Positions 1 through 62,754 of a stretch of DNA of 64,000 nt are shown here, in pieces. Position numbers and translations under genes: made by a program. Location of the stretch: the NCBI GenBank assembly GCA_030765235.1, contig JAVCCW010000025.1:240-64239 (forward strand), in the 5' to 3' direction. The notes beneath the pieces are model-generated. The model made no database searches. It saw only the letters and a list, made by a program, of their open reading frames with translations, and was not told where the DNA came from. This DNA comes from Candidatus Gorgyraea atricola. Lineage in GTDB: Bacteria; Omnitrophota; Gorgyraeia; Gorgyraeales; Gorgyraeaceae. Each line of letters starts with the position of its first letter. Position 1 is the first letter of the stretch.

Positions 1-111
1 GGTCGCATTAACAGGAAAATATTACCGGCAGATTGTTTTAGCTGTGCGCGTTGTTTGAATGTTTGTCCAGTTGATGCTATCCAATATACGTTTTTCTTAA
101 AAAAAGGGTAA
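1..111 (+). CDS. C-terminal end of a 4Fe-4S ferredoxin-domain protein (partial; upstream part lies outside the window)
   Basis: In-frame translation ...ADCFSCARCLNVCPVDAIQYTFFLKKG* shows a CxxCxxCxxxCP cluster motif; stop at 109-111. Confidence 0.45.
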   Translation, partial: GRINRKILPADCFSCARCLNVCPVDAIQYTFFLKKG

Positions 112-116
112 TCTAA

Positions 117-413
117 ATGATTGCACCAAGAAGCAATTATTTTAAGAGCGTACTGTTCTCCATAGTTATAATTTTTATATTTCTGTCTGTGGCAGCAGGG
201 TTTCTGCATAATCACAGCGATTCAGAATTTCATAATGATTGTCCTGTGTGTATTTTAGCTATAACCGCATATATAATTATATTTTTCACAATCCTTCTTT
301 TTGTAGATTTTCCATATATTGGTTTTACTTATATTACGTTCCAAAAGTTTATATATATAGATTTTTACTCCTCAAATTTTTCTCGAGCTCCTCCATTTCT
401 CTTTAAAGTCTAA
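117..413 (+). CDS. Small hypothetical membrane protein with a CPVC motif
   Basis: ORF of 98 aa with two hydrophobic segments; no recognisable family; AT-rich. Confidence 0.3.
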   Translation: MIAPRSNYFKSVLFSIVIIFIFLSVAAGFLHNHSDSEFHNDCPVCILAITAYIIIFFTILLFVDFPYIGFTYITFQKFIYIDFYSSNFSRAPPFLFKV

Positions 414-468
414 TTTCGTCACTTAAAATTCACTTATACTACATAAAATAGAGGAGTGTTGCCTTTAT

Positions 469-1197
469 ATGAAGAAAATTTTATATCTAACCTTATTTTT
501 AATGGGTATTGCATCTTTTGCGTATGCAGCAAGGCCATTATCTACCGATGATGCAGGAACAGTAGAAAAAGGATTTTTTGAGATAGAGAACGGTTTTGAA
601 TATGTTAAACAAGATGATGAAGAATATAATTTGAGCTTTGCTTTGAAATACGGTATTAGTGAAAGTTTTCATATAGGAGTAGAGCTTCCATATAAGTTTA
701 TTAACTTTAAGGAAAGCGAGGATATGGATGGTATAGGAGATCTCGTAGTTAGTTCTAAATATAATTTCTTGGAGGATGAAGGGAATTTGCCCAGCATGTC
801 TTTAGGTGTCAGTATCAAGACAGAAACAGGAGATGCAGATAAAGGCTTAGGCACAAGTGAAGTAGATTATGGTGTTAATGGAATAATGAGTAAGGAAATA
901 GGAAGATTAATCTCGCATTTAAATGTAGGTTATACATTTGTTGGAGGGCCAGGAAAGGATACATCTTCCTATGGGCTTGCTATGGAATATCCAATAAATG
1001 AAAATTTGAATGTATTAGGAGAGATTACTGGTGAGACAGCTTTTGATGGAGATTTTGATGACAATCCTTTTAGCGGACTGGTGGGGGTAAATTATGCTAT
1101 AAATGCGATGGTAATGTTCGATCTTGGAATAGGCTTTGAGATTTCAGATGCAAGCCCTGATTATACTATTGTTACAGGTTTGACATTAGGATTTTGA
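469..1197 (+). CDS. Secreted outer-membrane beta-barrel-like protein
   Basis: Signal peptide MKKILYLTLFLMGIASFAYA; alternating beta-strand-like composition; C-terminal ...LTLGF (terminal Phe is typical of OMPs); RBS ggagtg upstream. Confidence 0.55.
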   Translation: MKKILYLTLFLMGIASFAYAARPLSTDDAGTVEKGFFEIENGFEYVKQDDEEYNLSFALKYGISESFHIGVELPYKFINFKESEDMDGIGDLVVSSKYNFLEDEGNLPSMSLGVSIKTETGDADKGLGTSEVDYGVNGIMSKEIGRLISHLNVGYTFVGGPGKDTSSYGLAMEYPINENLNVLGEITGETAFDGDFDDNPFSGLVGVNYAINAMVMFDLGIGFEISDASPDYTIVTGLTLGF

Positions 1198-1215
1198 TAT
1201 TTTCATTAAGGATTG

Positions 1216-1393
1216 TACTAGTCACTATTTGGTCACTAGCAATAATCCTCAAAATCACCAATTCTCATAACTTATTGTGAGATAATAGGTTACAACCATA
1301 CAATCCATCTAGGACATCAGATTTTCGATCTGACGACACCGGTTCGAATCCGGTTGGGGACGCCATTTTATCATAACTAATTGTAAAATAATA
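1216..1393 (+). repeat. Composite repeat unit, copy 1 (actagtcactatttggtcactagc / ccaattc / tRNA-like fragment / ttgtaaaataataag); related to 3281-3391
   Basis: Same sub-blocks recur at 3281-3391 in a slightly different order, flanking the 1622-3244 gene on both sides. Confidence 0.7.
1317..1365 (+). other. tRNA-derived 3' fragment A: anticodon arm tcaga-TTTTCGA-tctga (anticodon UUC, Glu-like), T-arm accgg-TTCGAAT-ccggt, acceptor 3' strand tggggac, G, CCA; no 5' half present
   Basis: Canonical T-loop TTCGAAT and encoded CCA; the matching 5' acceptor strand gtcccca is absent upstream. Confidence 0.6.
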
Positions 1394-1535
1394 AGATAGG
1401 AAAGTACTTAATAAGCTACTCTTGAAGTGTCGTCAGATTGTATCTCTGATGACATAGCGGGGAGGGTCGAATTTAGCAAGTTTGTAGTTTTTTCAATAAT
1501 GCACCCACTGTAGCCATCTTTGTCTCGAAATCGCA

Positions 1536-1621
1536 CCCCTTCCCAATAAGCTATATTTGTGATATACTTATAATTGAATAAGTAGCTCAACTTAGCCCCT
1601 GAGAAAGGGCGATTTTTTGCC
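1536..1621 (+). promoter_or_regulatory. Conserved promoter/leader module of paralog family member P1 (extended -10 TGaTATACT at 1560-1568; motif gagaaaggg-N-tttttt before the ATG)
   Basis: About 80 nt are conserved with 9170-9261 and more weakly with 62836-62922 (ccccttcccaataagcYatatttgtgRtata ... gcccYtgagaaagggYgRttttttg ... gattATG). Confidence 0.55.
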
Positions 1622-3244
1622 ATGATTATGACGAGATTTAGAAAACTGTTAATCACAAAAACAATAGGATTGGTTATAATAGTTACGTTCTCTGTAACTA
1701 CTACAGTCTACGGCATAGATTTGTCAGACTTCGAGCATCTTAGAAAGCCCCTTGATTTTAGCGATGTTTCTTTGGATGCGGACAAGAGACACAGCGATGC
1801 AAGAAAAGACTTGGTAGCTACAGAAGAAAATCTAAGACTTATAGATGAAAATGAAAGAAATGATATTTTGCAAGCGATTAAAATTTCCATAGAGGGAGTA
1901 AGAATAGCAAAGCGTCTAAAATTAATTTCTCGAAAACAAAAAAATGAAAATATTTCTTTGTTGCGAGAATTAAAAAGAAAAAATTCAATCTTTATTCGTT
2001 CGAATCCTGAAAAAATATTAAACATAGATTATTTTTTGGGGCCAATTCGTTCCAACGAAAGATTTATTTTTGCCCAAGAATTATTTAATAGGTCCTGGTT
2101 TAAAGGGCGTGGCCTGGAATACCTATCCGACCTTATTCTCTTTCGCACCCTATCTACCGATGACCTAAGAAATAAAATCATAGGCGAGGAGAAAGTTATC
2201 AAGTTAAAGCAAACAGTAGAATTTTACCTAGAAAACTATAGGAAGTCTCCCCAAGAAAGAAACCTAACATTGCTCTATTTTGAAGAATCGTTAGAAGATA
2301 TTAGGCCCAGAGTAACAGAAGCAATAAAAGAAGTGATTGACCAATTGTTTTATCAGGAATCTGAAGAACGCAATAAATTAATACAAAGCTTAGAAACGTT
2401 AAATATTTTTAGATCTAGGAAGGGGAATTGGTTATCTACTAGCCATTATTATTGGGTACTTTTTAAAGCCTTGTTTCTTGGGCATTCTGTTAAGAAAGAT
2501 GTTGTTCATCATGAGATGGGGCATCATAGTAGATACCTTTTTAATTTAGAAGACCCTTTCAGTGTATTTGGAAATATAGTAAGAGGACTTTTGGGTAAGG
2601 AAGACGAAAACGTACAAAAGGGGAAAGATTATGCCCGTTCTTATTTGGAGCAAAAAGTAACTCAAGGGGAACTCAAGAAAACAATAAGCGAAAAATGGTT
2701 AGAGGGTAGGACTAAAAAATATAGAGATCCTAAAGATTTTTTCTCTGACGAGGATTATAAGGCAGGATATTTTTTAGCAGGTCTTTTCTTGGGATTACAT
2801 GGGAACGATAAAAAACGGGCAATGAAATTTGCATTGGATTTAACTTTTGCCGAATGGTTTAATTGGACAAGAAAATTTTTGAAAAAATATTATTTTTTAA
2901 ATAACCTTTATCTTGCTTTAGGGCTGGTAGGTGATATTTTATTTGTAATATCCGGTGGATGGGGTATTTATATATTAACAGAATCAGCATGGGCAGTAGT
3001 TGGTGGCGTTATCGCCATTATTGTTCTCGGAGCATTTTTAATGACAGGGCATGAATCTTACCGTGAGAAATTATTCAATGAAAGAGTCGAAAGAGGAGAT
3101 GTTAAAGATTTTGGTGCACCAATTGCAGATATAGACCTTATAGATGAAGAAGCTCCTCAACATAAGACTGATGATGCAGATGCAGCAAATAATTTGACTT
3201 CCGAACTAATTAAGTTTAGAAAACTTCAAGCAGACGATTTATAA
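1622..3244 (+). CDS. Paralog family member P1: signal-anchored protein with an HExxH (HEMGHH) motif and C-terminal transmembrane segments; putative secreted or membrane metallopeptidase-like protein
   Basis: 540-aa ORF; N-terminus ...TTTVYGIDLSDFEHLRKPL is shared with the ORF at 62923 and loosely with the ORF at 9262; HEMGHH at about aa 297; hydrophobic C-terminal region. Confidence 0.6.
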   Translation: MIMTRFRKLLITKTIGLVIIVTFSVTTTVYGIDLSDFEHLRKPLDFSDVSLDADKRHSDARKDLVATEENLRLIDENERNDILQAIKISIEGVRIAKRLKLISRKQKNENISLLRELKRKNSIFIRSNPEKILNIDYFLGPIRSNERFIFAQELFNRSWFKGRGLEYLSDLILFRTLSTDDLRNKIIGEEKVIKLKQTVEFYLENYRKSPQERNLTLLYFEESLEDIRPRVTEAIKEVIDQLFYQESEERNKLIQSLETLNIFRSRKGNWLSTSHYYWVLFKALFLGHSVKKDVVHHEMGHHSRYLFNLEDPFSVFGNIVRGLLGKEDENVQKGKDYARSYLEQKVTQGELKKTISEKWLEGRTKKYRDPKDFFSDEDYKAGYFLAGLFLGLHGNDKKRAMKFALDLTFAEWFNWTRKFLKKYYFLNNLYLALGLVGDILFVISGGWGIYILTESAWAVVGGVIAIIVLGAFLMTGHESYREKLFNERVERGDVKDFGAPIADIDLIDEEAPQHKTDDADAANNLTSELIKFRKLQADDL

Positions 3245-3280
3245 AAAATTATTCTATTAAAAAGATGCTTGAACTAGTCA

Positions 3281-3391
3281 CTATTTGGTCACTAGCGATA
3301 AACTGAAAACTTACCAATTCGCCCAACCTGTTGTAAAATAATAAGTTGTAAGTATAATATTTTACTAGGACATCAGATTTTCGATCTGACG
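3281..3391 (+). repeat. Composite repeat unit, copy 2, including tRNA-derived fragment B (ctaggacatcagattttcgatctgacg, 3365-3391)
   Basis: 27-nt identity with 1309-1335; shares actagtcactatttggtcactagc and ttgtaaaataataag with copy 1. Confidence 0.7.
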
Positions 3392-3404
3392 CCGATAAAA
3401 CCCC

Positions 3405-3433
3405 TTGACATTGTATATACCATATGGTATATT
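3405..3433 (+). promoter_or_regulatory. Sigma70-like promoter of the Fic gene (TTGACA-17-TATATT) carrying a perfect 18-bp palindrome ATATACCATATGGTATAT (3415-3432); candidate autoregulatory operator
   Basis: Read directly from the sequence; the downstream gene encodes an N-terminal HTH. Confidence 0.5.
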
Positions 3434-3437
3434 TTAA

Positions 3438-4346
3438 ATGGTGATAAATATGAAAAATGGTATATTTTCCGTACAAGAGCAGATTAGTTATATTATGAAA
3501 ATGTCTGGTATGAACCAGGCAGATATAGCTAGGGCTTTAGAGGTGGATTACAAGACTGTAAACAGGTGGATTAACGAAGAAAGGGCACCGCATACTGCAC
3601 ATAGGCAAAAGCTTTATAAGTTATTTATCGAAAAAGTTGATTTGCCTTTATTGGCCGCTAGATTAAAAAAAAGATACAAGAATCCTCTGAAAACAATAAA
3701 AGAAAACCCCAGCATATATAATAAGTTCCTGGTAAGTTTGACCTATAATTCAGATGCGATCGAAGGCAGCACTTTAACAGAGAGTGATACGGAAAGGATC
3801 ATTATACAAGGAGATGTCTTGGCCAATAAAAGCCAGAAGGCACAACAAGAGGCAATAAACCATAAGACAGCGCTGGAGTTTGTATTTTCAAAAGCAACCA
3901 GGGATTTTAAAATAGACGAAGGTTTTATATTGTCGTTGCACAGAATGGTTATGCACGGGTTAAGCAAAGACGCGGGTCAATTAAGAAGGGTAAACGTAAA
4001 CATAAGAGGGCTTCAGAAAAAATTGTCCCACTACCAGTTTGTTCCGCAGCTATTTAAGGAGTTTACCTCAGATGTAAATACGTACGGGGGTAATGTGATA
4101 AAAAAGACAGCCATTAATCATTATGAATTTGAAGAGATGCACCCATTTAGTGATGGGAATGGCAGGGTGGGTAGGCTCATTTCCATAACTCAGCTATTAT
4201 CAAAAAACTTCCCTCCTTGTGTAATACAAAATAAAGACAGAGAGCGTTACTATGGTGTTCTGCAGATGGGAGACATACATAGGTTTGACCCTATAGCGAA
4301 TTTTTTCGCTGAAAGCATTTTGCAAGGATATGCTTTGTTGGAATAA
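3438..4346 (+). CDS. HTH (XRE-like) plus Fic domain protein (adenylyltransferase family), class II architecture with an N-terminal inhibitory motif
   Basis: Fic motif HPFSDGNGRVGR; N-terminal HTH ...MNQADIARALEVDYKTVNRWI; SDAIEG matches the (S/T)xxxE(G/N) inhibitory motif; the true start may be the ATG at 3450. Confidence 0.8.
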   Translation: MVINMKNGIFSVQEQISYIMKMSGMNQADIARALEVDYKTVNRWINEERAPHTAHRQKLYKLFIEKVDLPLLAARLKKRYKNPLKTIKENPSIYNKFLVSLTYNSDAIEGSTLTESDTERIIIQGDVLANKSQKAQQEAINHKTALEFVFSKATRDFKIDEGFILSLHRMVMHGLSKDAGQLRRVNVNIRGLQKKLSHYQFVPQLFKEFTSDVNTYGGNVIKKTAINHYEFEEMHPFSDGNGRVGRLISITQLLSKNFPPCVIQNKDRERYYGVLQMGDIHRFDPIANFFAESILQGYALLE

Positions 4347-4391
4347 CTTTCCTCCTTGACCATCCTGATTTTTCTTCTATAATATAACGAC

Positions 4392-6224
4392 ATGCGTTAT
4401 ACCAGAGATCAAATATTATCCGCGCTCAAACAATATTGGGGTTATACTTCTTTCCGGCCTTTACAGGAAGAGATAATTTTTTCTATTCTCGAGGACAAAG
4501 AGAGCCTTACAGTCCTGCCCACTGGCGGGGGAAAGTCACTCTGCTTCCAATTGCCGGCGCTTCTTAGGGATGGCATGGCAGTTGTCATTTCTCCGCTTAT
4601 ATCTCTCATGAAAGACCAGGTGGACGCGTTAAAAGATATAGGAATAGCCGCGGTATATTTAAATTCCAGCTTATCTATTAAGGAACAAAGAAAAATAATA
4701 GCGCTTATCCAGGAGCAAAAAATAAAACTTCTCTATATCTCGCCTGAGCGTTTGCAGAACGAAGAGACAGTTGATCTCTTGCGCTCGGTACAGGTCTCCT
4801 TTTTTGTAATAGATGAGGCGCATTGTATAAGCCACTGGGGGCATGATTTCAGGGCTGACTATCGTAATCTCAGGATTATAAAGGAGATGTTCCCGTCGAT
4901 GAGTGTCCACGCGTTTACAGCCACTGCTACAAAAGCAGTGCAGGATGATATTGTGGCCCAGCTAAAATTTGACGACGCGAAAGTACACATTGCTTCTGTA
5001 GACCGGTCTAATCTGACATACAGGGTGGTGCCCCGCACGATCATTATACAGCAGATAACTGATGTGCTGAAAAAACACGTTAACGAACCAGGCATTATAT
5101 ATTGTCTGCGCAGGGATGATGTTGACACGATATCTGATAAATTAAATAAACTTGGTTTCGAGAACCTGCCTTATCACGCGGGCCTTACAGATGAAGTGCG
5201 CCACGTGAACCAGGATAAGTTCGTGCGTGAACAGGTCAATATAATAGTGGCAACAGTTGCCTTTGGCATGGGTATTGACCGTTCAAATATCCGTTTTATC
5301 ATACACGCTGCTATGCCCAAAAGCCTGGAATATTATCACCAGGAAACAGGACGCTCTGGCCGCGATGGACTCCCGTCATATTGTTACATGTTTTTTGGCG
5401 GCAGGGATTATCGCACCTGGAAGTTTCTGTCGGAAAAATCCTCTAATCAGGATACTCTCGTTGCTAAACTAAATACAATATATCATTTTTGCTCAAAGCC
5501 TCAGTGCAGGCACAAGGCTATCGCAGCTTATTTTGACCAGGTGTATGATAAAAATTCCTGCGCGGCCTGCGATTATTGCCTGGATGAATTTGACATGGTC
5601 GTGAATCCTTTAAAGATAGGGCAGGACATATTGTTCTGTATATACGAGGTCACACAGGATATCTCTTACGGATTTGGCGCAGGCCATATAGCCAATATAT
5701 TAAAGGGGCATCTGACCGATAATGTTGAAAGAAGAGGACATCATAAGTTAGCCAAGTTTGGTATGATGACCGGCACTTCGCTGGAATTCATAAGATACAT
5801 GATAGAGCAGATGATAGGCCAGGATTTTCTTGTAAGGGAGGGAGCGTATTCTACACTTTCGCTTACGCCTTCCGCGATAAAGGTGCTAAAAGGCGAGATC
5901 ACTCCGACGCTGGTCAAGCCGCTACTGGCCAAAAAGAAAAAAGAGATCGCGAAGAAAAGAAAAGAGATAAAAGAAAAAGAATGGCAGGGCATAGATCAGG
6001 AATTATTTCAGATGCTTCGCAGGAAACGAGCAGAGCTTGCGTTTAACCATCGTGTCCCAGCCTTCATAATCTTTGGAGACAAATCCTTAAAAGACATGGC
6101 CATCATAAAACCTACCACAAAAGAAACCTTTGCCACAGTATTTGGAGTAGGCGCCAAAAAAGCAGAGACCTACGCAGACACCTTTACTTCAATAATCAGC
6201 GAATACCTGAAGTCATATGACTGA
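4392..6224 (+). CDS. recQ: ATP-dependent DNA helicase RecQ
   Basis: Q-motif FRPLQ, Walker A PTGGGKS, DEAH box, zinc-binding cysteines, HRDC-like C-terminus; promoter TTGACC-16-TATAAT at 4356-4383. Confidence 0.9.
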   Translation: MRYTRDQILSALKQYWGYTSFRPLQEEIIFSILEDKESLTVLPTGGGKSLCFQLPALLRDGMAVVISPLISLMKDQVDALKDIGIAAVYLNSSLSIKEQRKIIALIQEQKIKLLYISPERLQNEETVDLLRSVQVSFFVIDEAHCISHWGHDFRADYRNLRIIKEMFPSMSVHAFTATATKAVQDDIVAQLKFDDAKVHIASVDRSNLTYRVVPRTIIIQQITDVLKKHVNEPGIIYCLRRDDVDTISDKLNKLGFENLPYHAGLTDEVRHVNQDKFVREQVNIIVATVAFGMGIDRSNIRFIIHAAMPKSLEYYHQETGRSGRDGLPSYCYMFFGGRDYRTWKFLSEKSSNQDTLVAKLNTIYHFCSKPQCRHKAIAAYFDQVYDKNSCAACDYCLDEFDMVVNPLKIGQDILFCIYEVTQDISYGFGAGHIANILKGHLTDNVERRGHHKLAKFGMMTGTSLEFIRYMIEQMIGQDFLVREGAYSTLSLTPSAIKVLKGEITPTLVKPLLAKKKKEIAKKRKEIKEKEWQGIDQELFQMLRRKRAELAFNHRVPAFIIFGDKSLKDMAIIKPTTKETFATVFGVGAKKAETYADTFTSIISEYLKSYD

Positions 6225-6411
6225 ATATATTTGCCCTCACTGCAAGCAGCCTGTTTATGATGACGATGCAATAAGGTGTCTTTATTGCGGGGAAAGTCTG
6301 AACCGTAGCATAGGCTTTATGGCACGCATAAAATATCCACCGTATAAAACAATAATCATCGCTGCCGTAATATTGGTCTTAGTAAGTTTTATCGCATTAA
6401 TAATTAGATAA
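6217..6411 (+). CDS. Small zinc-ribbon (CPHC...CLYC) protein with a C-terminal transmembrane helix
   Basis: 64-aa ORF overlapping the recQ stop; CxxC-N14-CxxC followed by a hydrophobic helix. Confidence 0.45.
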   Translation: MTEYICPHCKQPVYDDDAIRCLYCGESLNRSIGFMARIKYPPYKTIIIAAVILVLVSFIALIIR

Positions 6412-6422
6412 GAGGTGAAAAA

Positions 6423-7208
6423 ATGAAATTACCGAGTTCTTTAGTGGTGTTTGATCTTGAGACGACCGGTACTTGGATTGAGAAGGACAGGATAGTCGAG
6501 ATCGGTATGATCAAGTTATTGCCGGATGGTTCAAGAGAGGCTTATGTAAAACGCGTTAATCCTGGCATACCAATTCCACCTAATGTCAGTCGTATTATTA
6601 ATATCGTGGACGGTGATGTTAAAGACGCGCCGCGATTTAAGGATATAGCCAAGGAGGTGCAGGAGTTTATAGGCGATTCTGATCTTGGCGGATTCAATAT
6701 CCTGAGATTTGACCTGCCTGTATTGGAGCGCGAGTTTTTTGACGCGGGCTTCAGTTTTTATTGGCGCGAGCGTAATATATACGACGCGCAAAAAGTTTAT
6801 CACATACACGAAAAAAGGGACCTGACAGCCGCTTACCGGTTATACTGCGGAAAAAATCTTGATAACGCGCATTCCGCCCTGGGTGACGCTGAAGCAACGG
6901 TCGAGATATTTGACGCGCAGATCAAAAAGTACGGGGCCGTGGAGCAGGGCATAGAGTCTCTGAAAGATTTTGATTATGAACGCTCCAGCGCTTATTTTGA
7001 TAAAGGCCGAAAGTTTTGCTGGTGGAATGGCGAACTGTATCCAATGTTCGGTAAATATGGAAAGAAAAAACACATAAAGGACATCCTCAAGAATGACCGT
7101 CGATATTTAGAATGGGTGATTACCAAGGATTTTAGCGAGGAAATCAAGGTGATGATAAAAAAAGCCCTGGCCGGAGAATTGCCGCAGGCCCCGTCATTTG
7201 ATAATTAA
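6423..7208 (+). CDS. DEDDh 3'-5' exonuclease (DnaQ / DNA polymerase III epsilon-like) with a C-terminal extension
   Basis: Exo I motif VVFDLETTG; Exo III ...HSALGDAEAT; RBS agaggtg. Confidence 0.8.
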   Translation: MKLPSSLVVFDLETTGTWIEKDRIVEIGMIKLLPDGSREAYVKRVNPGIPIPPNVSRIINIVDGDVKDAPRFKDIAKEVQEFIGDSDLGGFNILRFDLPVLEREFFDAGFSFYWRERNIYDAQKVYHIHEKRDLTAAYRLYCGKNLDNAHSALGDAEATVEIFDAQIKKYGAVEQGIESLKDFDYERSSAYFDKGRKFCWWNGELYPMFGKYGKKKHIKDILKNDRRYLEWVITKDFSEEIKVMIKKALAGELPQAPSFDN

Positions 7209-7223
7209 AAGGAGGTTTAGCGT

Positions 7224-7877
7224 ATGACTTATCTAAGGATAATTTTAATATTAATATTCCTTTCAATCGTTTCTTGGGTAGGGGAGTCCAATGTTTTTGC
7301 TGAAAAATTAAAACCCATTGAGCTTTTAAAACCTCAGCTCGAAAGAGGCGTATTGTTAATGCAGGCGCTCAAGGAAAGAAAATCAGAACGTGAGTTCAGC
7401 ACCAAGGAGCTTTCCCTGGAACTTATTTCAAATCTTTTATGGGCTGCTTCTGGCGTAAACAGGCCTGATTCTGGAAAACTTACATCTCCCACTGCAAAAA
7501 ACTGGCAAGAAATCGAGATATATGTGGCTATGGAAAAAGGATTATATTTATACAATGCCCAAAAGCATACCTTAGAACCGATCATGGCTAAGGATGTGCG
7601 GGAGTTTGTCGGGCTTCAGTCTTTTACGCAAATAGCTCCTCTTGATCTTATATATGTAGCTGATTTTGCAAAAATGGGTGGACATAATGAAGGGACAATT
7701 TTTTATTCAGCGACCGATACAGGGTTTATCAGTCAGAATGTATATCTTTTCTGTGCATCAGAAGGGCTGGCAACTGTTGTCCTGGGCTGGGTTGATAAAC
7801 CAGCCTTGTCAAAAATCATGAACCTTAGAGACGATCAAAGTATAATACTTACACAGCCAGTAGGTTATCCAGAGTAA
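7224..7877 (+). CDS. Secreted nitroreductase-superfamily (SagB-type dehydrogenase-like) protein
   Basis: Signal peptide; RxSPTAKNWQEIEIYV resembles the SagB-type RxSPSAGxxYPxExY region. Confidence 0.55.
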   Translation: MTYLRIILILIFLSIVSWVGESNVFAEKLKPIELLKPQLERGVLLMQALKERKSEREFSTKELSLELISNLLWAASGVNRPDSGKLTSPTAKNWQEIEIYVAMEKGLYLYNAQKHTLEPIMAKDVREFVGLQSFTQIAPLDLIYVADFAKMGGHNEGTIFYSATDTGFISQNVYLFCASEGLATVVLGWVDKPALSKIMNLRDDQSIILTQPVGYPE

Positions 7878-7887
7878 GGGAAATTTT

Positions 7888-9111
7888 ATGAAACGTAAAA
7901 AAGTTGAACTCGTGGCTCCAGCAGGATCCTGGGCTGGGCTACAGACTGCTATAAAATATGGGGCAGATAGTGTGTATTTTGGCGTAAGAGATTTGAACAT
8001 GCGCCACAGCGCAGAGAATTTTGATTTACTCGAGCTGGACAAGGCAATGAAGTTATTGCATAAAAACAATAGAAAAGGTTACCTGACTTTAAATACTATC
8101 ATCTACAATAACGAACTTAGCAAGATCAGGAAGATCCTGAAAAAGGCTAAAAAAGCAGGCGTGGACGCGGTTATTGCTTGGGACATGGCTGTTCTTAAGA
8201 TAGCTAAAGAATTAAAACTCAAGGTTCATCTTTCAACTCAGGCAAGTGTTTCAAATTTTTCTGCAGTGAAATTCTATAGTTTATTAGGGGTTAAAAGGAT
8301 TGTGCTGGCAAGGGAGTGTAGTTTCGAAGCAATAAAGGATATCATTAAATCCATCAGAAAAGAGAAGATAGGCTGCGAGATAGAGACATTTATCCACGGC
8401 GCCATGTGCGTGAGCCTATCAGGAAGATGCTTTTTATCGTCGTATGCATTTGCAAAATCAGCAAATAGAGGCAAGTGTATCCAGCCCTGCAGGAGGCGAT
8501 ATCTTATCACTGACCTGGAAGAAAAGGGCAATAAGTATATTTTGGGCAAGGATTATATATTGAGTCCCAAGGATCTATGCACAATAGATTTTATTGACAG
8601 ACTTATAGAAATAGGCGTAACTTCTTTTAAAATAGAAGGCAGGATGCGTAACCCTGAGTATGTGAAGGAGGTAACTTCTGTATACAGGACTGCGATAGAC
8701 GCGTTCTTTAAAGATAGCCTGAGCGCGCAGTTGAAAAAAAATCTCAAGCGCAGACTGAATTCGGTCTACAATAAAGGCTTTACGAACGGATTTTTCTGGG
8801 AGACACCTAATGATACAGGTGCTGGCCCTGTAGACAGTAAACACGAAAAGATCTTTTTAGGAGAGGTGGTTAATTTTTACAATAAAAATAACGTCGCGGC
8901 CATCCATATAAGGAACCAAGGTGTTAAGATAGGAGACAGGATCGCAATCTACGGAAAAAGCACACCCTTATCCATCGCAGAAGTAAAAGAGATGCAGATA
9001 GCCGGCAAGGCAGTAACCTTTACAGAAAAAGGCAAACAAGTAGGCATAAAACTACCCTTCAAAGTAAGACGCAACGACAAGGTCTTCTTTTACAAGCAAA
9101 AACATGCTTAA
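7888..9111 (+). CDS. Peptidase U32 family protein (collagenase-like; YhbU/RlhA family)
   Basis: N-terminus KKVELVAPAGSWAGLQTAIKYGADSVYFG and a central cysteine-rich region typical of U32. Confidence 0.8.
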   Translation: MKRKKVELVAPAGSWAGLQTAIKYGADSVYFGVRDLNMRHSAENFDLLELDKAMKLLHKNNRKGYLTLNTIIYNNELSKIRKILKKAKKAGVDAVIAWDMAVLKIAKELKLKVHLSTQASVSNFSAVKFYSLLGVKRIVLARECSFEAIKDIIKSIRKEKIGCEIETFIHGAMCVSLSGRCFLSSYAFAKSANRGKCIQPCRRRYLITDLEEKGNKYILGKDYILSPKDLCTIDFIDRLIEIGVTSFKIEGRMRNPEYVKEVTSVYRTAIDAFFKDSLSAQLKKNLKRRLNSVYNKGFTNGFFWETPNDTGAGPVDSKHEKIFLGEVVNFYNKNNVAAIHIRNQGVKIGDRIAIYGKSTPLSIAEVKEMQIAGKAVTFTEKGKQVGIKLPFKVRRNDKVFFYKQKHA

Positions 9112-9149
9112 CTTTACATTTAAGGTCTTGCTTTAAATGTAAAGTTAAG
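9107..9149 (+). repeat. REP-B palindromic element copy 1 (cttaactttacatttaa-ggtcttgc-tttaaatgtaaagttaag); hairpin terminator candidate containing the U32 stop codon
   Basis: Near-perfect 17-bp inverted arms; the same element is found inverted at 49817-49856. Confidence 0.7.
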
Positions 9150-9169
9150 TACAATTCGCCATACCGCTA

Positions 9170-9261
9170 CCCCCTTCCCAATAAGCCATATTTGTGGTAT
9201 AATATACTTGTATGAGCATCTCAACCAGGCCCTTGAGAAAGGGTGGTTTTTTGGGTGGATT
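9170..9261 (+). promoter_or_regulatory. Conserved promoter/leader module of paralog P2 (extended -10 TGgTATAAT at 9195-9203)
   Basis: Aligns with 1536-1621. Confidence 0.55.
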
Positions 9262-10170
9262 ATGGAGAGAATTAAAAAACAGTTAACTGTGATAACGTTA
9301 TTTGTGTTTGTATTTACAGCCACAGCTTATAGCGCAGATGGGCATCTAAGGATACCGCTTTTATCAAAAGAGAAAGAGGCCCTGCAGAAATTAAGAGATT
9401 TATTTTATAATGACGACATGAACTTGCGAGAACGCTTGCATCTGCAGGGCATAACAGAAAAAGAAATTGACATTATCGGAAAAGAGACTAAAGAGCCTCA
9501 AGACTACAGATATTTTTATGAATACGAATTAGGGATTGTGCAAATCAAATCTTTGATGCAATATCTTAAAGGGCCAGTAATTTTAGTTATAGAAGGAGAG
9601 ATGGGTAGCGGCAAATCTACGTTAATACATAGGCTGGCAACAGGACGCGATTTTGGTATAAACCCTTCAGCTATCACTGTATTTGACGAAGATATTTTAG
9701 ACATGGAGCATGACGAAGACGAAATGAGAGATATAATAGAATTATTTATCGAAACGATAGAAACTGATAAGAATTTTATAATTTATGATGGGCATTTTTT
9801 TATACAGCATGTTCGCACGTTGCCTAGTGTATACGACAGAACGAAAGAGTTACTGAAAAAGTTTTATATTATTAAAGTTAGCATAGAAGCTATCTGGGAT
9901 AGAGAAGGGCGTATACTGACAAAAAACGAAGATTTTGTTACTATACCCACAATTGGTGACCTAGACTTTGATGATAAGTTGCAAAGCCAGAAAAGATATA
10001 TTATGATTAAGCCCGATGCGATACTACAAAAGGCAAAAGGGGATTCTTCAAAGGACTTATCCCGAGATGCTGTCCAACTCGGCAATAAGAAAAAAATCAT
10101 AAAAGAACTAAATCGTCTAAAAGTTAAGACGCTGCATTTTCTTAGGAAAATTGGTTTTAGATTTTTGTGA
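9262..10170 (+). CDS. Paralog family member P2: secreted or signal-anchored P-loop NTPase (nucleoside/nucleotide-kinase-like Walker A)
   Basis: Start at the conserved gattATG (the ORF track starts at TTG 9208 inside the leader); signal peptide MERIKKQLTVITLFVFVFTATAYSA; Walker A VIEGEMGSGKST; N-terminus ...LRIPL shared with P1 and P3. Confidence 0.6.
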   Translation: MERIKKQLTVITLFVFVFTATAYSADGHLRIPLLSKEKEALQKLRDLFYNDDMNLRERLHLQGITEKEIDIIGKETKEPQDYRYFYEYELGIVQIKSLMQYLKGPVILVIEGEMGSGKSTLIHRLATGRDFGINPSAITVFDEDILDMEHDEDEMRDIIELFIETIETDKNFIIYDGHFFIQHVRTLPSVYDRTKELLKKFYIIKVSIEAIWDREGRILTKNEDFVTIPTIGDLDFDDKLQSQKRYIMIKPDAILQKAKGDSSKDLSRDAVQLGNKKKIIKELNRLKVKTLHFLRKIGFRFL

Positions 10171-10214
10171 TGTAGAAGAGAGTAAGCAGTCTTCCTAATA
10201 ATCCCATCCAAATA

Positions 10215-10250
10215 TCAGATTTTCGATCTGACTCCGACTGGTTCGAATCC
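10215..10250 (+). other. tRNA-derived fragment C (anticodon arm tcaga-TTTTCGA-tctga followed by ggTTCGAATCC)
   Basis: Same anticodon arm as fragments A and B; T-loop-like TTCGAATCC; the acceptor region is not canonical. Confidence 0.5.
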
Positions 10251-10295
10251 ACCGGGCGGAGGGGCCCACGAACAGAATACCCCACGCACCATAAT
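10247..10295 (+). repeat. Repeat R2, copy a (atccaccgggcggaggggcccacgaacagaataccccacgcaccataata)
   Basis: About 90% identical to 34633-34684. Confidence 0.65.
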
Positions 10296-10307
10296 ATGGG
10301 ATAAAGA

Positions 10308-10346
10308 GATTGCTTCGGCCCCGGTAAATCGGGACCTCGCAATGAC
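10308..10346 (-). repeat. Palindromic repeat family GTCATTGCGAGG-[stem-loop]-CCGAAGCAATC, copy i (reverse orientation)
   Basis: The terminal inverted repeat ATTGC...GCAAT encloses a GC hairpin. Confidence 0.65.
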
Positions 10347-10659: not shown

Positions 10660-10709
10660 GATTGCTTCGCGGAGTTTACCCCGAGCGAAGTCGAGGGGCC
10701 CGCAATGAC
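10660..10709 (-). repeat. Palindromic repeat family GTCATTGCG...CGAAGCAATC, long copy ii (reverse orientation); about 85% identical to 62706-62754
   Basis: gtcattgcgggcccctcgacttcgctcggggtaaactccgcgaagcaatc on the minus strand. Confidence 0.65.
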
Positions 10710-10729
10710 GTATTGGAGGGTGATAAGAT

Positions 10730-11602
10730 ATGAAGTTAAAACTTGGACTTCCTAAGGGTAGCCTGCAAGAGGCTACTATCCGGATGTTTAAAAAAGCAGG
10801 CTTTAATATATCTATAGGTTCTAGAAGTTATTTCCCATCTATAGATGATATAGAGATAGAGCCGTTTTTATTAAGGGCGCAGGAGATGGCGAGATATGTT
10901 GCTGATGGCGCGCTTGACTGCGGCATTACAGGCAATGACTGGACCATAGAGAGCGGCAAACAGGTCGTAAAGGTGTGCGATCTTATATATGGCAAGCAGG
11001 GCCTCAGGCCAGTGCGCTGGGTTCTGGCAGTACCGAAAGATTCAAAGATAAGAAGCGCAAAGGATCTTAAGGGAAAACGTATAGCCACTGAACTCGTCAA
11101 TGCTACAAAGGCATATTTTAAGAAGAAAAAGGTGAGCGTGGATGTAGAATTCAGCTGGGGTGCGACAGAGGCAAAGGTGGGCGCAGGCCTGGTAGACGCA
11201 ATAGTCGAACTTACTGAAACAGGCATGAGCCTCAAGGCTAATAACCTTCGCATCATCGATACGATCTGCGAATCCACGACTCTTGTAGTAGCAAATAAGG
11301 CCTCGTGGAAGAATCCATGGAAAAGGCAGAAGATAGAATCCATAGCGCTTCTTCTAAAAGGCGCGTTGGCAGCTGAGGAAAAGGTAGGGCTTAAGATGAA
11401 CGTGGAAGAAAAGAATCTCAAGAAAGTGATCTCCATTCTTCCTGCCATGAAAAAACCCACCATCTCAAAACTTTCTCAAAAAGGATGGTGCGCGATAGAG
11501 ACTATAGTTGAAGAAACAATCGTTCGTAATATTATTCCAAAGCTGAAAAAGCAGGGCGCTCAAGGAATCATCGAATATCCATTGAATAAAGTGATACAAT
11601 AA
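10730..11602 (+). CDS. hisG: ATP phosphoribosyltransferase, long form (HisG-L)
   Basis: [25 protein letters not shown]...; about 290 aa including the C-terminal regulatory domain. Confidence 0.88.
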
Positions 11603-33459: not shown

Positions 33460-33659
33460 TCACTCCTGCCCCGCCAGGCTGGCAGGCCTTCAAAAAGACG
33501 CTCGGCCGCCCCAGCGAGGCGGCCTTCGCTCATTGTAATTTTTTGCTCGTCCCGCCCTTTTGACTTTGTCAAAAGGGCGGGACACCATGCCCGCAAAAAA
33601 TTACGATGCTTTTTTCAGACCTACCAGCCCGCCGGGGCAGGAGCGAGATCCAGTTGAGA

Positions 33660-33745
33660 TTAGTTGGGCAGGGGAGTATAATGATAAAAGACAACCTTGG
33701 ACATTCCGACATAAGGACAACGCAGATATATTTACAGGCTGTTCC
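33660..33745 (+). pseudogene. C-terminal remnant of a tyrosine recombinase / phage-type integrase (...IMIKDNLGHSDIRTTQIYLQAV...)
   Basis: LGHSxIxTTQIY with the catalytic Tyr is the signature tail of tyrosine integrases; no N-terminal or catalytic core is found upstream, only a repeat cluster. Confidence 0.6.
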
Positions 33746-33818
33746 AAGGATAAAGAGTAAAGAGATAAAGAAGATTTTTGATAGGTGGAAGCAAAGGAAG
33801 GATAGGCGAAAAGTAGTT

Positions 33819-34364
33819 ATGATAGAAGTACCCGAGTATCTAAAAAAATTATTAGAAATAGAAGAAAAGGTAAAGTTGAAAAGATACTGCAATGATATAA
33901 TCGTAACACAGGAAGATTTTGTAAAATTAATAACCAATTGTTATAAAATTGGTTATCTTCACCAAATCAAACATCACGACTTTGTGTCTTCTCATCTTCA
34001 TCCTTCAGAAAAAGAGAAAGACGCATTAGCTTCAGTTACAGTTGGAGAAAGAATTACAGGAGATGCTAAAAAGTTTATGAATAAAATTTCTCAAATCTTC
34101 AAAGAACGCAGATATCTTGTTGCCCATATATTTTTTAACGAAAAGAAATGGCATATGTTCTACTTTGACCAAAGAGACGCAGAAAGTCAAAGGAAAAACC
34201 ATTGGAAAAAAGGGGCTCACATTCATTTCGTGAATTATTTATGGCCGCAGTATGATTTGAATAAATTATGGGAAATATTTGATATGGCTAATGCATCTGC
34301 CGGGGGTAAATTACATATCAAGTTTGAAGGGCAAGATTATGATAGAATTAATTCAACTATTTAA
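33819..34364 (+). CDS. Hypothetical protein, candidate cargo of a degraded integrative element
   Basis: ORF in frame with, and fused to, the integrase remnant; internal ATG at 33819 (MIEVPEYLKK...); no recognisable domain. Confidence 0.4.
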   Translation: MIEVPEYLKKLLEIEEKVKLKRYCNDIIVTQEDFVKLITNCYKIGYLHQIKHHDFVSSHLHPSEKEKDALASVTVGERITGDAKKFMNKISQIFKERRYLVAHIFFNEKKWHMFYFDQRDAESQRKNHWKKGAHIHFVNYLWPQYDLNKLWEIFDMANASAGGKLHIKFEGQDYDRINSTI

Positions 34365-34632
34365 GAGGTTTGATGTATATAACCCTTGTATAACCCTTGT
34401 ACCGTTTGCGAATTCTCCTACCAATGTGTCCCCAAGTTTATAACAGCTAAAAAGAAGGTCTGCGGAGCCCCATTCCAAATTCTAATCGATAAGCTATTTA
34501 TTATTTGTAACTAATTGCGGACAATTCTAATGGATTGTTTGGTGATATTCAAGAATTTGGAACGGGGCAGGCGAATTGAAAATTTAGCCTGCGATGGATA
34601 AGTGGGGCGTGGGGTGTTCTGTGAGTGGGAGG

Positions 34633-34684
34633 ATCCACACCGGGCGGAGGGGCCCGCGAACAGAATACCCCGCGCCCCACGATA
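34633..34684 (+). repeat. Repeat R2, copy b
   Basis: About 90% identical to 10247-10295; an 11-mer tandem duplication tataacccttg x2 lies nearby at 34376-34397. Confidence 0.65.
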
Positions 34685-34842
34685 CGTGATAAAAGGTTAC
34701 CCTTGAGCGAAGCCCCATACCAAAATCTTCGATTTGATACGGGGCAGGCAGACCTTCTTTTTAGCTGCTCCTGTAGCGTGAATTTCAGTTGCGATTTGTC
34801 TGGGTTATGGTAGCATAATGACAAGAGAGAAGGAGGAGTGAA

Positions 34843-60696: not shown

Positions 60697-60714
60697 AGAA
60701 GGTCCTTCGACGCG

Positions 60715-60739
60715 CCAAATAATGCTTCGCATTATTTGG
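60715..60739 (+). repeat. Hairpin ccaaataatg-cttcg-cattatttgg upstream of tRNA-Ser(GGA); shares its arm sequence with the hairpin at 60898-60929 downstream of the tRNA
   Basis: Read directly. Confidence 0.6.
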
Positions 60740-60771
60740 CTTGCTCAGGATCAATTTTGCTTCGCAAAATT

Positions 60772-60862
60772 GGAGAGATCGCATAGCCTGGCCTAGTGCG
60801 CGCGCTTGGAAAGCGCGTAGACGGGCAACCGTCTCCAGGGTTCGAATCCCTGTCTCTCCGCC
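60772..60862 (+). tRNA. tRNA-Ser (anticodon GGA), long variable arm, CC encoded
   Basis: Acceptor ggagaga/tctctcc, anticodon stem cgcgc/gcgcg with loop ttGGAaa, variable stem gacgg...ccgtc, T-arm caggg-TTCGAAT-ccctg. Confidence 0.8.
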
Positions 60863-60897
60863 GAATTTGCCGAAGGCAAATTCGATCCCGAGCAAGT

Positions 60898-60929
60898 CAA
60901 ATAATGTGACGAATAGGAACATTATTTGG
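60898..60929 (+). repeat. Hairpin caaataatg-tgacgaataggaa-cattatttgg downstream of tRNA-Ser(GGA)
   Basis: Same 9-10-bp arms as 60715-60739. Confidence 0.6.
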
Positions 60930-60982
60930 CGTGTCGAGGGACATCTTGCGACGTTTGTGTAATGTGGAAGGTGTAATGTGTA

Positions 60983-62705: not shown

Positions 62706-62754
62706 TGTCATTGCGAGTCCCTCGGCTTCACTCGGGATAAACTCCGCGAAGCAG
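62706..62754 (+). repeat. Palindromic repeat family, long copy v
   Basis: About 85% identical to the reverse complement of 10660-10709. Confidence 0.65.

Follow-up and report, generated by a model that had tools for sequence, protein, structure and literature searches.

A probable tandem array of integrase-less cassettes at tRNA-Glu(UUC) in Candidatus Gorgyraea atricola

The stretch of DNA analysed here, hereafter the window, comprises 64,000 nt of a metagenome-assembled genome (MAG) of Candidatus Gorgyraea atricola, a member of the Omnitrophota. This uncultivated phylum consists of very small, possibly host-dependent bacteria and, to our knowledge, its mobile elements are almost undescribed. 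It is likely that the window opens in a tandem array of integrase-less cassettes that accumulated at tRNA-Glu(UUC) through tyrosine-integrase recombination centred on the anticodon. The array is recognised by composite repeats, each a conserved arm of ∼96 nt fused to a fragment of tRNA-Glu, at whose edges related genomes differ by insertion and deletion. The numbered loci mentioned below (L003, L008, L163 and so on) are those of other genomes and metagenome contigs that were compared with the window.

Composite repeats and their parent tRNA

A repeat search aligned positions 1213–1335 with 3269–3391 as a single ungapped repeat of 123 nt, the two copies being 79% identical. Repeat counts in the window were tested against 100 shuffles. 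The 24-mer ACTAGTCACTATTTGGTCACTAGC, present at 1217–1240 and 3273–3296, gives two matches when up to three mismatches are allowed, a result reached in none of the 100 shuffles. The 19-mer anticodon arm ATCAGATTTTCGATCTGAC occurs at 1316, 3372 and 10214, against a shuffle mean of 0.03, three matches again being seen in 0 of 100. The last of these bears out the third copy of the anticodon arm that an initial annotation of this DNA had placed near 10215–10250. The three tRNA-Glu fragments marked by the 19-mer, here called A, B and C, all lie on the + strand.

Arm A (1216–1308, + strand; nhmmer match 1214–1315, 81.9 bits) contains two GTCAC repeats, at 1221–1225 and 1232–1236, with a spacing of 11 bp, followed by the conserved blocks AGCnATAA and a TAAAATAATAAGTT-like sequence. 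Fragment A (1309–1365, + strand) comprises the 3' strand of the D-stem, the anticodon arm, variable loop, T arm, 3' acceptor strand, discriminator G and CCA, and lacks the 5' acceptor strand and the D arm. It is identical at 57 of 57 positions to the intact tRNA-Glu of L003, L008 and L018 and, from CTAGGAC (the D-stem 3' strand) through CCA, to the commonest intact tRNA-Glu(UUC) sequence, GTCCCCATCGTCTAGTCTGGCCTAGGAC-ATCAGATTTTCGATCTGAC-GACACCGGTTCGAATCCGGTTGGGGACGCCA. Derivation from tRNA-Glu(UUC) without its 5' half had been put forward in the initial annotation, and this match to Omnitrophota tRNA-Glu takes it beyond plausibility and establishes it. Rfam likewise reports a partial tRNA at 1302–1354 (model positions 9–63, 29.4 bits against a gathering score of 29). 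ARAGORN found no functional tRNA gene at fragment A, upstream of which the GTCCCCA 5' strand is absent, and no tRNA-Glu at all in the 64-kb window, in agreement with the earlier remark that the intact parent is missing from it.

Arm B (3272–3364, + strand; nhmmer match 3270–3371, 90.3 bits) has its GTCAC repeats at 3277–3281 and 3288–3292 and is 86–90% identical to the arms of L008, L036, L057 and L104. Fragment B (3365–3391, + strand) consists of CTAGGAC and the anticodon arm only, tRNA homology stopping after TCTGACG. Fragment C (10214–10250, + strand), an anticodon arm followed by TCCGACTGGTTCGAATCC, is identical over 37 of 37 positions to the fragment of L003, including the variant TCCGACTGG segment of the latter. 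It is truncated by half a copy of a repetitive extragenic palindromic (REP)-like element (10251–10305, + strand; 87% identical to 34639–34693).

Directly after fragment A lies a third, degenerate composite, postA (1366–1533, + strand; the composite proper at 1381–1457). It contains TTGTAAAATAATAAG at 1381–1395 and a variant anticodon-arm-like hairpin, TCAGA-ttgtatc-TCTGA (1433–1449), which was flagged as an inverted repeat and is followed by decayed tRNA-like sequence. Over 157 nt it is 85% identical to L030, in which the matching sequence is preceded by an arm and the variant hairpin. A reading of 1427–1457 as an inverted copy of the anticodon arm was rejected, since the comparison with L030 revealed a same-strand variant hairpin in a degenerate composite. 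This composite also calls for a correction of register. Four sequence blocks had been listed on either side of the gene at 1622–3244, and all lie where they had been placed, but the TTGTAAAATAATAAG of copy A is past the tRNA fragment, in the degenerate composite; the in-register counterpart of the block in copy B is TTGTGAGATAATAGG at 1275–1289.

An exact scan for the 19-mer over one genome per species gave 66 loci. Intact tRNA-Glu(UUC) genes, mostly from Omnitrophota or from MAGs labelled Planctomycetia, account for 39 of the matches, and another 14 are fragments rather than genes, with upstream sequence in common to 13 of the 14. From the fragment copies sharing this sequence we built an nhmmer profile of the arm, which found 26 additional copies in 20 related loci, and in the 64-kb window only the two copies already described. 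Where an arm copy shares a locus with an intact tRNA-Glu, it lies downstream of the tRNA gene and on the same strand (9 of 9 copies).

This distribution bears on whether the composites are an ordinary dispersed intergenic repeat, of the REP or miniature inverted-repeat transposable element type, containing a chance tRNA-like piece, a possibility that had been kept in reserve in the initial annotation. The genome does have REP-like palindromes, for example at 10251–10305, at 34639–34693 and on the flanks of a tRNA-Ser (60700–60942). The arm, however, has neither terminal inverted repeats nor a palindromic fold; its two copies in 64 kb both lie in the array and on one strand; it is always downstream of, and co-oriented with, tRNA-Glu; and the tRNA part is an exact match to the tRNA-Glu of relatives. 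We find a repeat of this ordinary kind hardly credible.

Alignments of the window arms with 18–25 copies from other genomes give the family a sharp left edge at ACTAGTCAC. The conserved unit begins abruptly at (A)CTAGTCACTATTTGGTCAC, which holds the two GTCAC repeats exactly 11 bp apart, continues with AGCGATAA and then TAAAATAATAAGTT, and leads without interruption into CTAGGAC and then the anticodon arm, of which it includes the 5' half and the loop. In contrast to this constant left side, the copies diverge to the right of the anticodon loop. The tRNA 3' end is perfect as far as CCA in window copy A, L003, L008, L018, L057, L093 and L104, whereas unrelated DNA follows the loop in window copy B, L021, L056, L059, L134 and L163. 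Hybrid right junctions, each common to two genomes with different cargo on the left, occur in L036/L096 and L044/L064, and the stem is kept with a different 7-nt loop in L030 (twice), L081 and L093. A constant, element-derived left part joined to a variable, target-derived right part fits a crossover inside the anticodon loop, and it is there that we infer the exchange to have taken place.

Apart from the anticodon hairpin, neither a consensus RNA fold nor covariation was detected in the arm, and Rfam finds in it only the partial tRNA. The arm was rejected as a structured RNA on these grounds, and the lack of structure and covariation favours a protein-binding DNA site. It might be supposed that the arm combines a promoter with a transcription-factor operator, and that the gene downstream uses the tRNA-like fragment as its 5' leader or as a processing signal. 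Copy B does have a TTGTAA-16-TATAAT aimed at the fragment edge, with a weaker match in copy A, and the tRNA-Asp-type arms at the ends of two integrase islands discussed below (L205 and L208) carry a near-consensus promoter, TTGACA-17-TAGAAT, at the same position. Across 19 aligned copies, however, the −10 and −35 hexamers vary and the spacer is the best conserved block; the arm was rejected as a conserved promoter because the hexamers differ. Different copies are followed by different things (RecQ, a pilin, Fic with a promoter of its own, or nothing at all), truncation of the fragment is frequent, covariation is lacking, and the link in position and orientation to tRNA-Glu would go unexplained. 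A regulatory role of this kind is very unlikely.

Occupied and empty sites in related genomes

The gene immediately upstream of tRNA-Glu is gyrA in at least 27 of the 39 intact loci. Two relatives, L013 and L015, show the empty site, gyrA–tRNA-Glu–hisG, with 380 and 445 nt from the 19-mer to hisG and no arm in between, and occupied relatives (L003, L008, L018 and L029) hold 1.4–2.8 kb of cassettes. In L003, L018 and L029 one cargo gene lies between the intact tRNA and an arm with its fragment, the span being 1.4–2.4 kb. In L008 two cassettes separate the tRNA from a pilin gene, after which comes hisG; the cargo of these cassettes is a Schlafen/AlbA_2 protein and a DUF5698/DUF2179 membrane protein, an arm follows each cassette, and the second arm bears the tRNA fragment. 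An intact tRNA-Glu stands at the start of the array in L003, L008, L018, L029, L030 and L052. The interval from gyrA–tRNA-Glu to hisG is a hot spot of gene gain and loss in the Omnitrophota.

The closest relative of the window is L003, at 94% nucleotide identity over the start of RecQ. Its gene order is gyrA, tRNA-Glu, REP-like hairpins, a 5' module, a 578-aa gene, arm with fragment, RecQ. In the window the order is an outer membrane protein gene, arm A with fragment A, the degenerate composite, the 5' module, a 540-aa gene, arm B with fragment B, Fic, RecQ. The 578-aa and 540-aa cargo proteins are unrelated in sequence, whereas the flanks are 85% (5' module) and 79–83% (arm) identical. Where the L003 fragment continues into the T arm, acceptor strand and CCA, the window has Fic with its promoter (about 3396–4341), a segment absent from L003, and homology picks up again at 4342. 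The differences between the two genomes, in cargo and in Fic, thus fall exactly at the edges of module, arm and fragment. The empty sites and the exchange of cargo between the same flanks are what insertion at these boundaries predicts for related genomes, and the earlier proposal of integrase-type, site-specific insertion into tRNA-Glu as the origin of the fragments is upheld by the tRNA match together with these boundary indels.

The conserved right neighbour of tRNA-Glu is hisG (10730–11602, + strand in the window), as tblastn synteny indicates in L008, L013, L015 and L024. In the window the distance from fragment C to hisG, which is followed by a tetratricopeptide repeat gene, is 516 nt. 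This places fragment C at the ancestral position of the tRNA 3' end, and hence at least 10.2 kb to the left of fragment C between the unseen tRNA and hisG. Judged by this arrangement, the core genome would resume at hisG, and the first at least 10.2 kb of the window appear to be inserted material. Fragment C, taken at first for a third separate locus, is instead the distal end of the whole array. A second point of the initial annotation that did not survive is the reading of copies A and B as an attL/attR pair of attachment (att) sites. Both have the arm on the left and the tRNA 3' part on the right, and no integrase is found in the bracketed segment or the array. Their common architecture makes both of them attR-type junctions of successive cassettes in a tandem array.

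Flanks that are 79–85% identical around unrelated cargo, as in L003 and the window, are also suited to homologous exchange. The composites could then be inert relics of ancient integration, with turnover by homologous recombination between 5' module and arm, and both the lack of an integrase in any array and the many truncated or hybrid fragments would agree with this. Yet the non-coding arm is better conserved than the hisG coding sequence (89% identity for arm B against 79% for hisG between the window and L008), its boundary is sharp in 28 copies, where inert scars would be expected to decay, and fragment A is still perfect at 57/57. This conservation, the sharp edge and the undecayed fragment argue for selection or recent spread, and we regard purely inert scars as unlikely. 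We treat the active-mobility and relic views of the tandem array as overlapping rather than exclusive.

The cargo gene between composites A and B (1622–3244, + strand) encodes a 540-aa protein with an N-terminal transmembrane (TM) or signal segment, an HEMGH motif and C-terminal TM helices, and without a match to any Pfam or NCBIfam family. The product is 100% identical to a protein annotated from a Ca. Gorgyraea atricola MAG; apart from this match to its own MAG, the databases contain a single homologue, which is 63% identical and set in another genomic context. The gene for this homologue, in L001, is bracketed by a different, multiply reiterated repeat, AATAATAGCCGTCCTATTCAGGTACACCCTA… (1318–1460 and 3375–3570), which bears a loose likeness to the GTCAC arm motif and has no tRNA fragment. 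A second cargo gene (9262–10170, + strand) encodes a P-loop NTPase-like protein of 302 aa, also with an N-terminal TM or signal segment, which in other records appears on short contigs only, in the same U32–cargo–hisG layout as in the window. It had been taken for a paralog of the HExxH gene. BLASTP gave no match between the two proteins, and HExxH (as HEMGH) is present only in the 540-aa protein.

What the two genes share is only a 5' module of ∼117 nt (promoter, leader and first codons) at 79% nucleotide identity. The first copy (1534–1621, + strand) is 79% identical to 9171–9286 and has a promoter-like TTCCCA-17-TATACT with TG (1540–1568), a GCCC/GGGC leader hairpin (1595–1610) and a T-run (1613–1618); the second (9171–9261, + strand) was recognised by comparison with it. 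In L003 and L027 the module follows the intact tRNA-Glu and precedes the first cargo gene. More widely (window 1534–1660 and 9171–9295; L003, L027, L001, L044 and L018), TTCCCA-17-TATACT, the leader hairpin GCCCnTGAGAAAGGGC, the T-run and ATG head cargo genes with unrelated bodies, whose proteins share the N-terminal TM or signal segment followed by a (Y-G-I-D-L-S…H)LRxP motif. From its make-up the module looks like a common head for expression and secretion, with a leader that is possibly of the attenuator type.

The Fic/DOC gene with a helix-turn-helix (HTH) domain (3392–4346, + strand; Pfam Fic 4e-17) has its own promoter, TTGACA-17-TATATT, at 3405–3433. Across the cassette loci the cargo includes a mechanosensitive channel, an SBF/ACR3-type transporter, AbiEii with an HTH partner, ParE toxin, an MBL-fold protein, HATPase_c proteins, a 1304-aa glycosyltransferase–pentapeptide protein, Fic and the two unknown-family proteins of the window; secreted or membrane proteins, toxin–antitoxin genes and Fic are thus among the classes represented.

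Several other features of the region were noted. A family of GC-rich REP-like palindromes (…cgcaatgac, ggggcccgcgaacagaatacccc…) is represented at 10251–10305, 34596–34693, 10310–10345, 10660–10710 and 62707–62753; those at 60700–60771 and 60863–60942 form an inverted pair around tRNA-Ser(GGA), and in L003 a relative of the family sits after the intact tRNA-Glu. A perfect 17-bp palindrome, CTTAACTTTACATTTAA / TTAAATGTAAAGTTAAG, lies at 9107–9149, 3' of the U32 peptidase gene. Its homologue directly follows the tRNA-Glu fragment in L018 (5588–5632), and it may be native sequence downstream of tRNA-Glu. The gyrA upstream of tRNA-Glu is much longer in L003 (2689–6696; 1335 aa) and L018 (1–3060), with an additional internal stretch that resembles an inserted intein or homing endonuclease.

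Integrases and the proposed mechanism

The presence of an integrase was tested by hmmsearch with a tyrosine-integrase-family profile against all open reading frames (ORFs). None was found in positions 1–10250 of the window or in any cassette locus, and Pfam detected no recombinases among the cargo proteins. The only match to the profile in the window is an ORF at 33606–34364. It opens with the C-terminal catalytic motif of a tyrosine recombinase, LGHSDIRTTQIYLQ, fused to unrelated sequence, has REP-like hairpins 275 nt downstream, and is probably an integrase remnant.

An arm and an integrase do occur together in L163, a metagenome contig. Here an arm with an anticodon-arm-like core lies 115 nt before a cro-like HTH gene, which is followed by an excisionase-like HTH_17 gene and a tyrosine integrase (Phage_integrase 3e-26, SAM_5 3e-13). 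Directly after the integrase stop codon is TTTTGTCACgaTTTTGTCACg, two GTCAC repeats 11 bp apart, and ∼60 nt beyond it a different, tRNA-Asp-like 3' fragment ending CGTCGTCCCCGCCA. The layout of a GTCAC pair at the integrase end, then a tRNA-like 3' fragment, recurs in L204, L205 and L208. The L204 protein, P0016, which shares 67% identity with the L163 integrase, is annotated from another contig of Ca. Gorgyraea atricola. In the window the distance from the stop codon of the preceding cargo gene to the start of the GTCAC motif is 24 nt in one case and 33 nt in the other, the same placement relative to cargo as elsewhere relative to the integrase. We infer from these positions that the GTCAC pair may be an arm-type site for the integrase family of L163 and P0016, or for its excisionase, and that the cassettes would retain the integrase-proximal arm without the integrase.

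In six unrelated metagenome contigs the exact 16-mer GTCACTATTTGGNCAC falls close to the stop codon of a same-family integrase, from 61 nt before it to 3 nt after it, and in four further contigs it is at most 800 nt downstream of such an integrase, on the same strand; in four contigs the 3' end of a tRNA or tmRNA is found 49–71 nt past it. We also observed a 16-mer, GTCACTATTTGG(N)CAC, at or just after the stop codons of integrases of one family in L083, L098, L122, L143, L151, L179 and others, with a tRNA-Pro, tRNA-Ala or tmRNA gene adjoining it in L083, L179 and L143. The conservation of this non-coding or overlapping motif across apparently unrelated contigs is striking. L167 was rejected as a further integrase-adjacent case, motif and integrase being 6.3 kb apart there.

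A link between tRNA-Glu and the integrase islands L205–L213 was considered and rejected, as neither tRNA-Glu nor arm nor fragment is present within 10 kb on either side; the islands end in a different tRNA-like 3' fragment, …CGTCGTCCCCGCCA. At the island ends (L163 2245–2335; L205 11140–11275; L208 11110–11215) the arm repeats are accompanied by a short tRNA-like 3' end …CCCCGTCGTCCCCGCCA, which is possibly tRNA-Asp-derived. The cargo of L205–L213 consists of defence genes: restriction-modification systems, SNF2/PLD helicase-nucleases and NYN.

We propose the following mechanism. Recombination would use the stem halves ATCAGA and TCTGAC as a pair of inverted core sites, with the 7-nt loop TTTTCGA between them forming the overlap region. 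Three parts would make up an incoming attP: the ∼96-nt arm, in which two arm-type GTCAC sites are phased at 11 bp; a tRNA copy that begins at the 3' strand of the D-stem; and a cargo gene with its own promoter and leader. Integration would regenerate the tRNA on the left and leave the arm with the displaced tRNA 3' part, attR, on the right, and repeated integration would displace older cassettes from the tRNA to leave a row of attR scars. Those in the window would be composite A (1216–1365), the decayed composite (1381–1457), composite B (3272–3391) and, before hisG, the distal fragment C (10214–10250). The intact tRNA-Glu, which is beside gyrA in relatives and off the window here, would represent the attL of the array. 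The cassettes might either be mobilised in trans by an integrase encoded elsewhere or be derivatives that have kept their att arms, in the manner of the cis-mobilisable elements (CIMEs) compared below.

A number of observations weigh against this account. Among the 28 arm copies, an integrase is found beside the one in L163 only and beside none of the rest, and the L163 integrase module appears to be part of an island whose right end is the tRNA-Asp-like fragment, so that no integrase is tied to the Glu-type site. Neither circular nor excised forms were observed and, together with the many truncated fragments, the lack of an excised form speaks against selection or recent spread. The arm 17-mer and the anticodon 19-mer had no match (0 each) in a viral contig collection, and a search of viral contigs with the L163 integrase returned only distant relatives, of 22–31% identity. 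No arm can be recognised upstream of fragment C, the window does not contain the intact tRNA-Glu of this genome, and the supposed inserted block is partly housekeeping-like (RecQ, exonuclease, nitroreductase and U32 peptidase). Homologous recombination between the conserved flanks could also exchange cassettes.

It is also conceivable that the Omnitrophota possess an integron-like system of cassette capture at tRNA-Glu, in which a tyrosine integrase, chromosomal or borne on an island and acting purely in trans, moves single-gene cassettes into and out of the anticodon-loop site, and the arm is a selected 'handle' rather than a scar. A cassette would then comprise its own promoter and leader, often a shared N-terminal secretion or TM signal with LRxP, and the 96-nt arm with the tRNA fragment as its site. 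We consider this possible but doubtful. Should the cassettes behind the tandem array indeed be moved in trans, they would form a compact cassette system distinct from integrons; should they not, they would provide a clean case of tandem accretion and decay at a tRNA site. Either way, the 96-nt arm, the 27–57-nt tRNA fragment and the shared 5' leader are practical markers for mapping accessory genes in MAGs.

Comparison with known systems

A regenerated target with a displaced fragment, and att sites centred on the anticodon, belong to an established and common class of tRNA att site (PMC4383910). The mechanism is thus already known, and the uniformly integrase-less cassettes are the unusual part. 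Islander-type tRNA islands (Islander; Williams 2002; PMC4383910) resemble the array in the regenerated target and the co-oriented 3' fragment at the far end, in an identity segment that spans the anticodon arm, in arm sites that flank the core and in presence or absence among relatives. They differ in that the window cassettes have no integrase of their own, that the units go down to one gene (1.4–2.4 kb) and that at least three fragments follow one another in the window; Islander, for which every array member must have an integrase, found only four tandems of three or more among 3919 islands (PMC4383910).

Tandem accretion is also known from the CIMEs and the elements related to ICESt1 (PMC5704250; Pavlovic 2004 as cited there), CIMEs having kept their att sites and lost the genes for integration and transfer. 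They too accumulate as tandem arrays at a single target, integrating site-specifically beside resident elements (PMC5704250), and the gene at 1622–3244, between composites A and B and without an integrase, has the corresponding form. CIMEs, however, are described as decayed integrative and conjugative or integrative and mobilisable elements in Firmicutes (PMC5704250). Here the integrase-less state is uniform over about 20 loci, the arm is strongly conserved, and a partner of either kind was not identified. We hypothesise that the cassettes may be mobilised by the integrase of another element; a homologous integrase, P0016, is encoded in the same species, and the arms of that family have the GTCAC-repeat architecture in common with the cassettes.

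Tycheposons and tRNA-flanked islands of Prochlorococcus (10.1101/2020.12.28.424599) share with the array variable islands by tRNAs, scattered partial tRNAs and degenerate remnants, older elements that are pushed inward by successive integration, and adaptive accessory cargo. Unlike the window cassettes, tycheposons have their own tyrosine recombinase and replication genes; the site here is a tRNA-Glu next to gyrA, in another phylum. The ssrA islands of Dehalococcoides (PMC3146451) are likewise numerous tandem islands downstream of a single-copy RNA gene, each bounded by a direct repeat of its 3' end, with a conserved motif just upstream of each repeat and some members without integration genes. 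In contrast, their recombinase is of the CcrB-like serine type, the repeat measures 20 bp and crossover takes place in the T-loop of tmRNA (PMC3146451).

Integron cassettes also mostly contain a single gene, each ends in a recombination site, and new ones are added at one fixed place in the chromosome. The array, however, has gyrA upstream and no IntI, attI or Pc beside it; the site is a tRNA fragment with an arm rather than a folded attC, and the cassettes have their own promoters. An integron proper was rejected because in relatives gyrA, and no integrase, precedes the array and no attC-like fold is present. The nearest ecological analogues would appear to be the tRNA-flanked islands and tycheposons of Prochlorococcus and the ssrA arrays of Dehalococcoides. 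What sets the Omnitrophota cassettes apart from the known systems is their uniformly integrase-less and often single-gene state at ∼20 loci, the shared arm and, in this lineage, the 5' leader.

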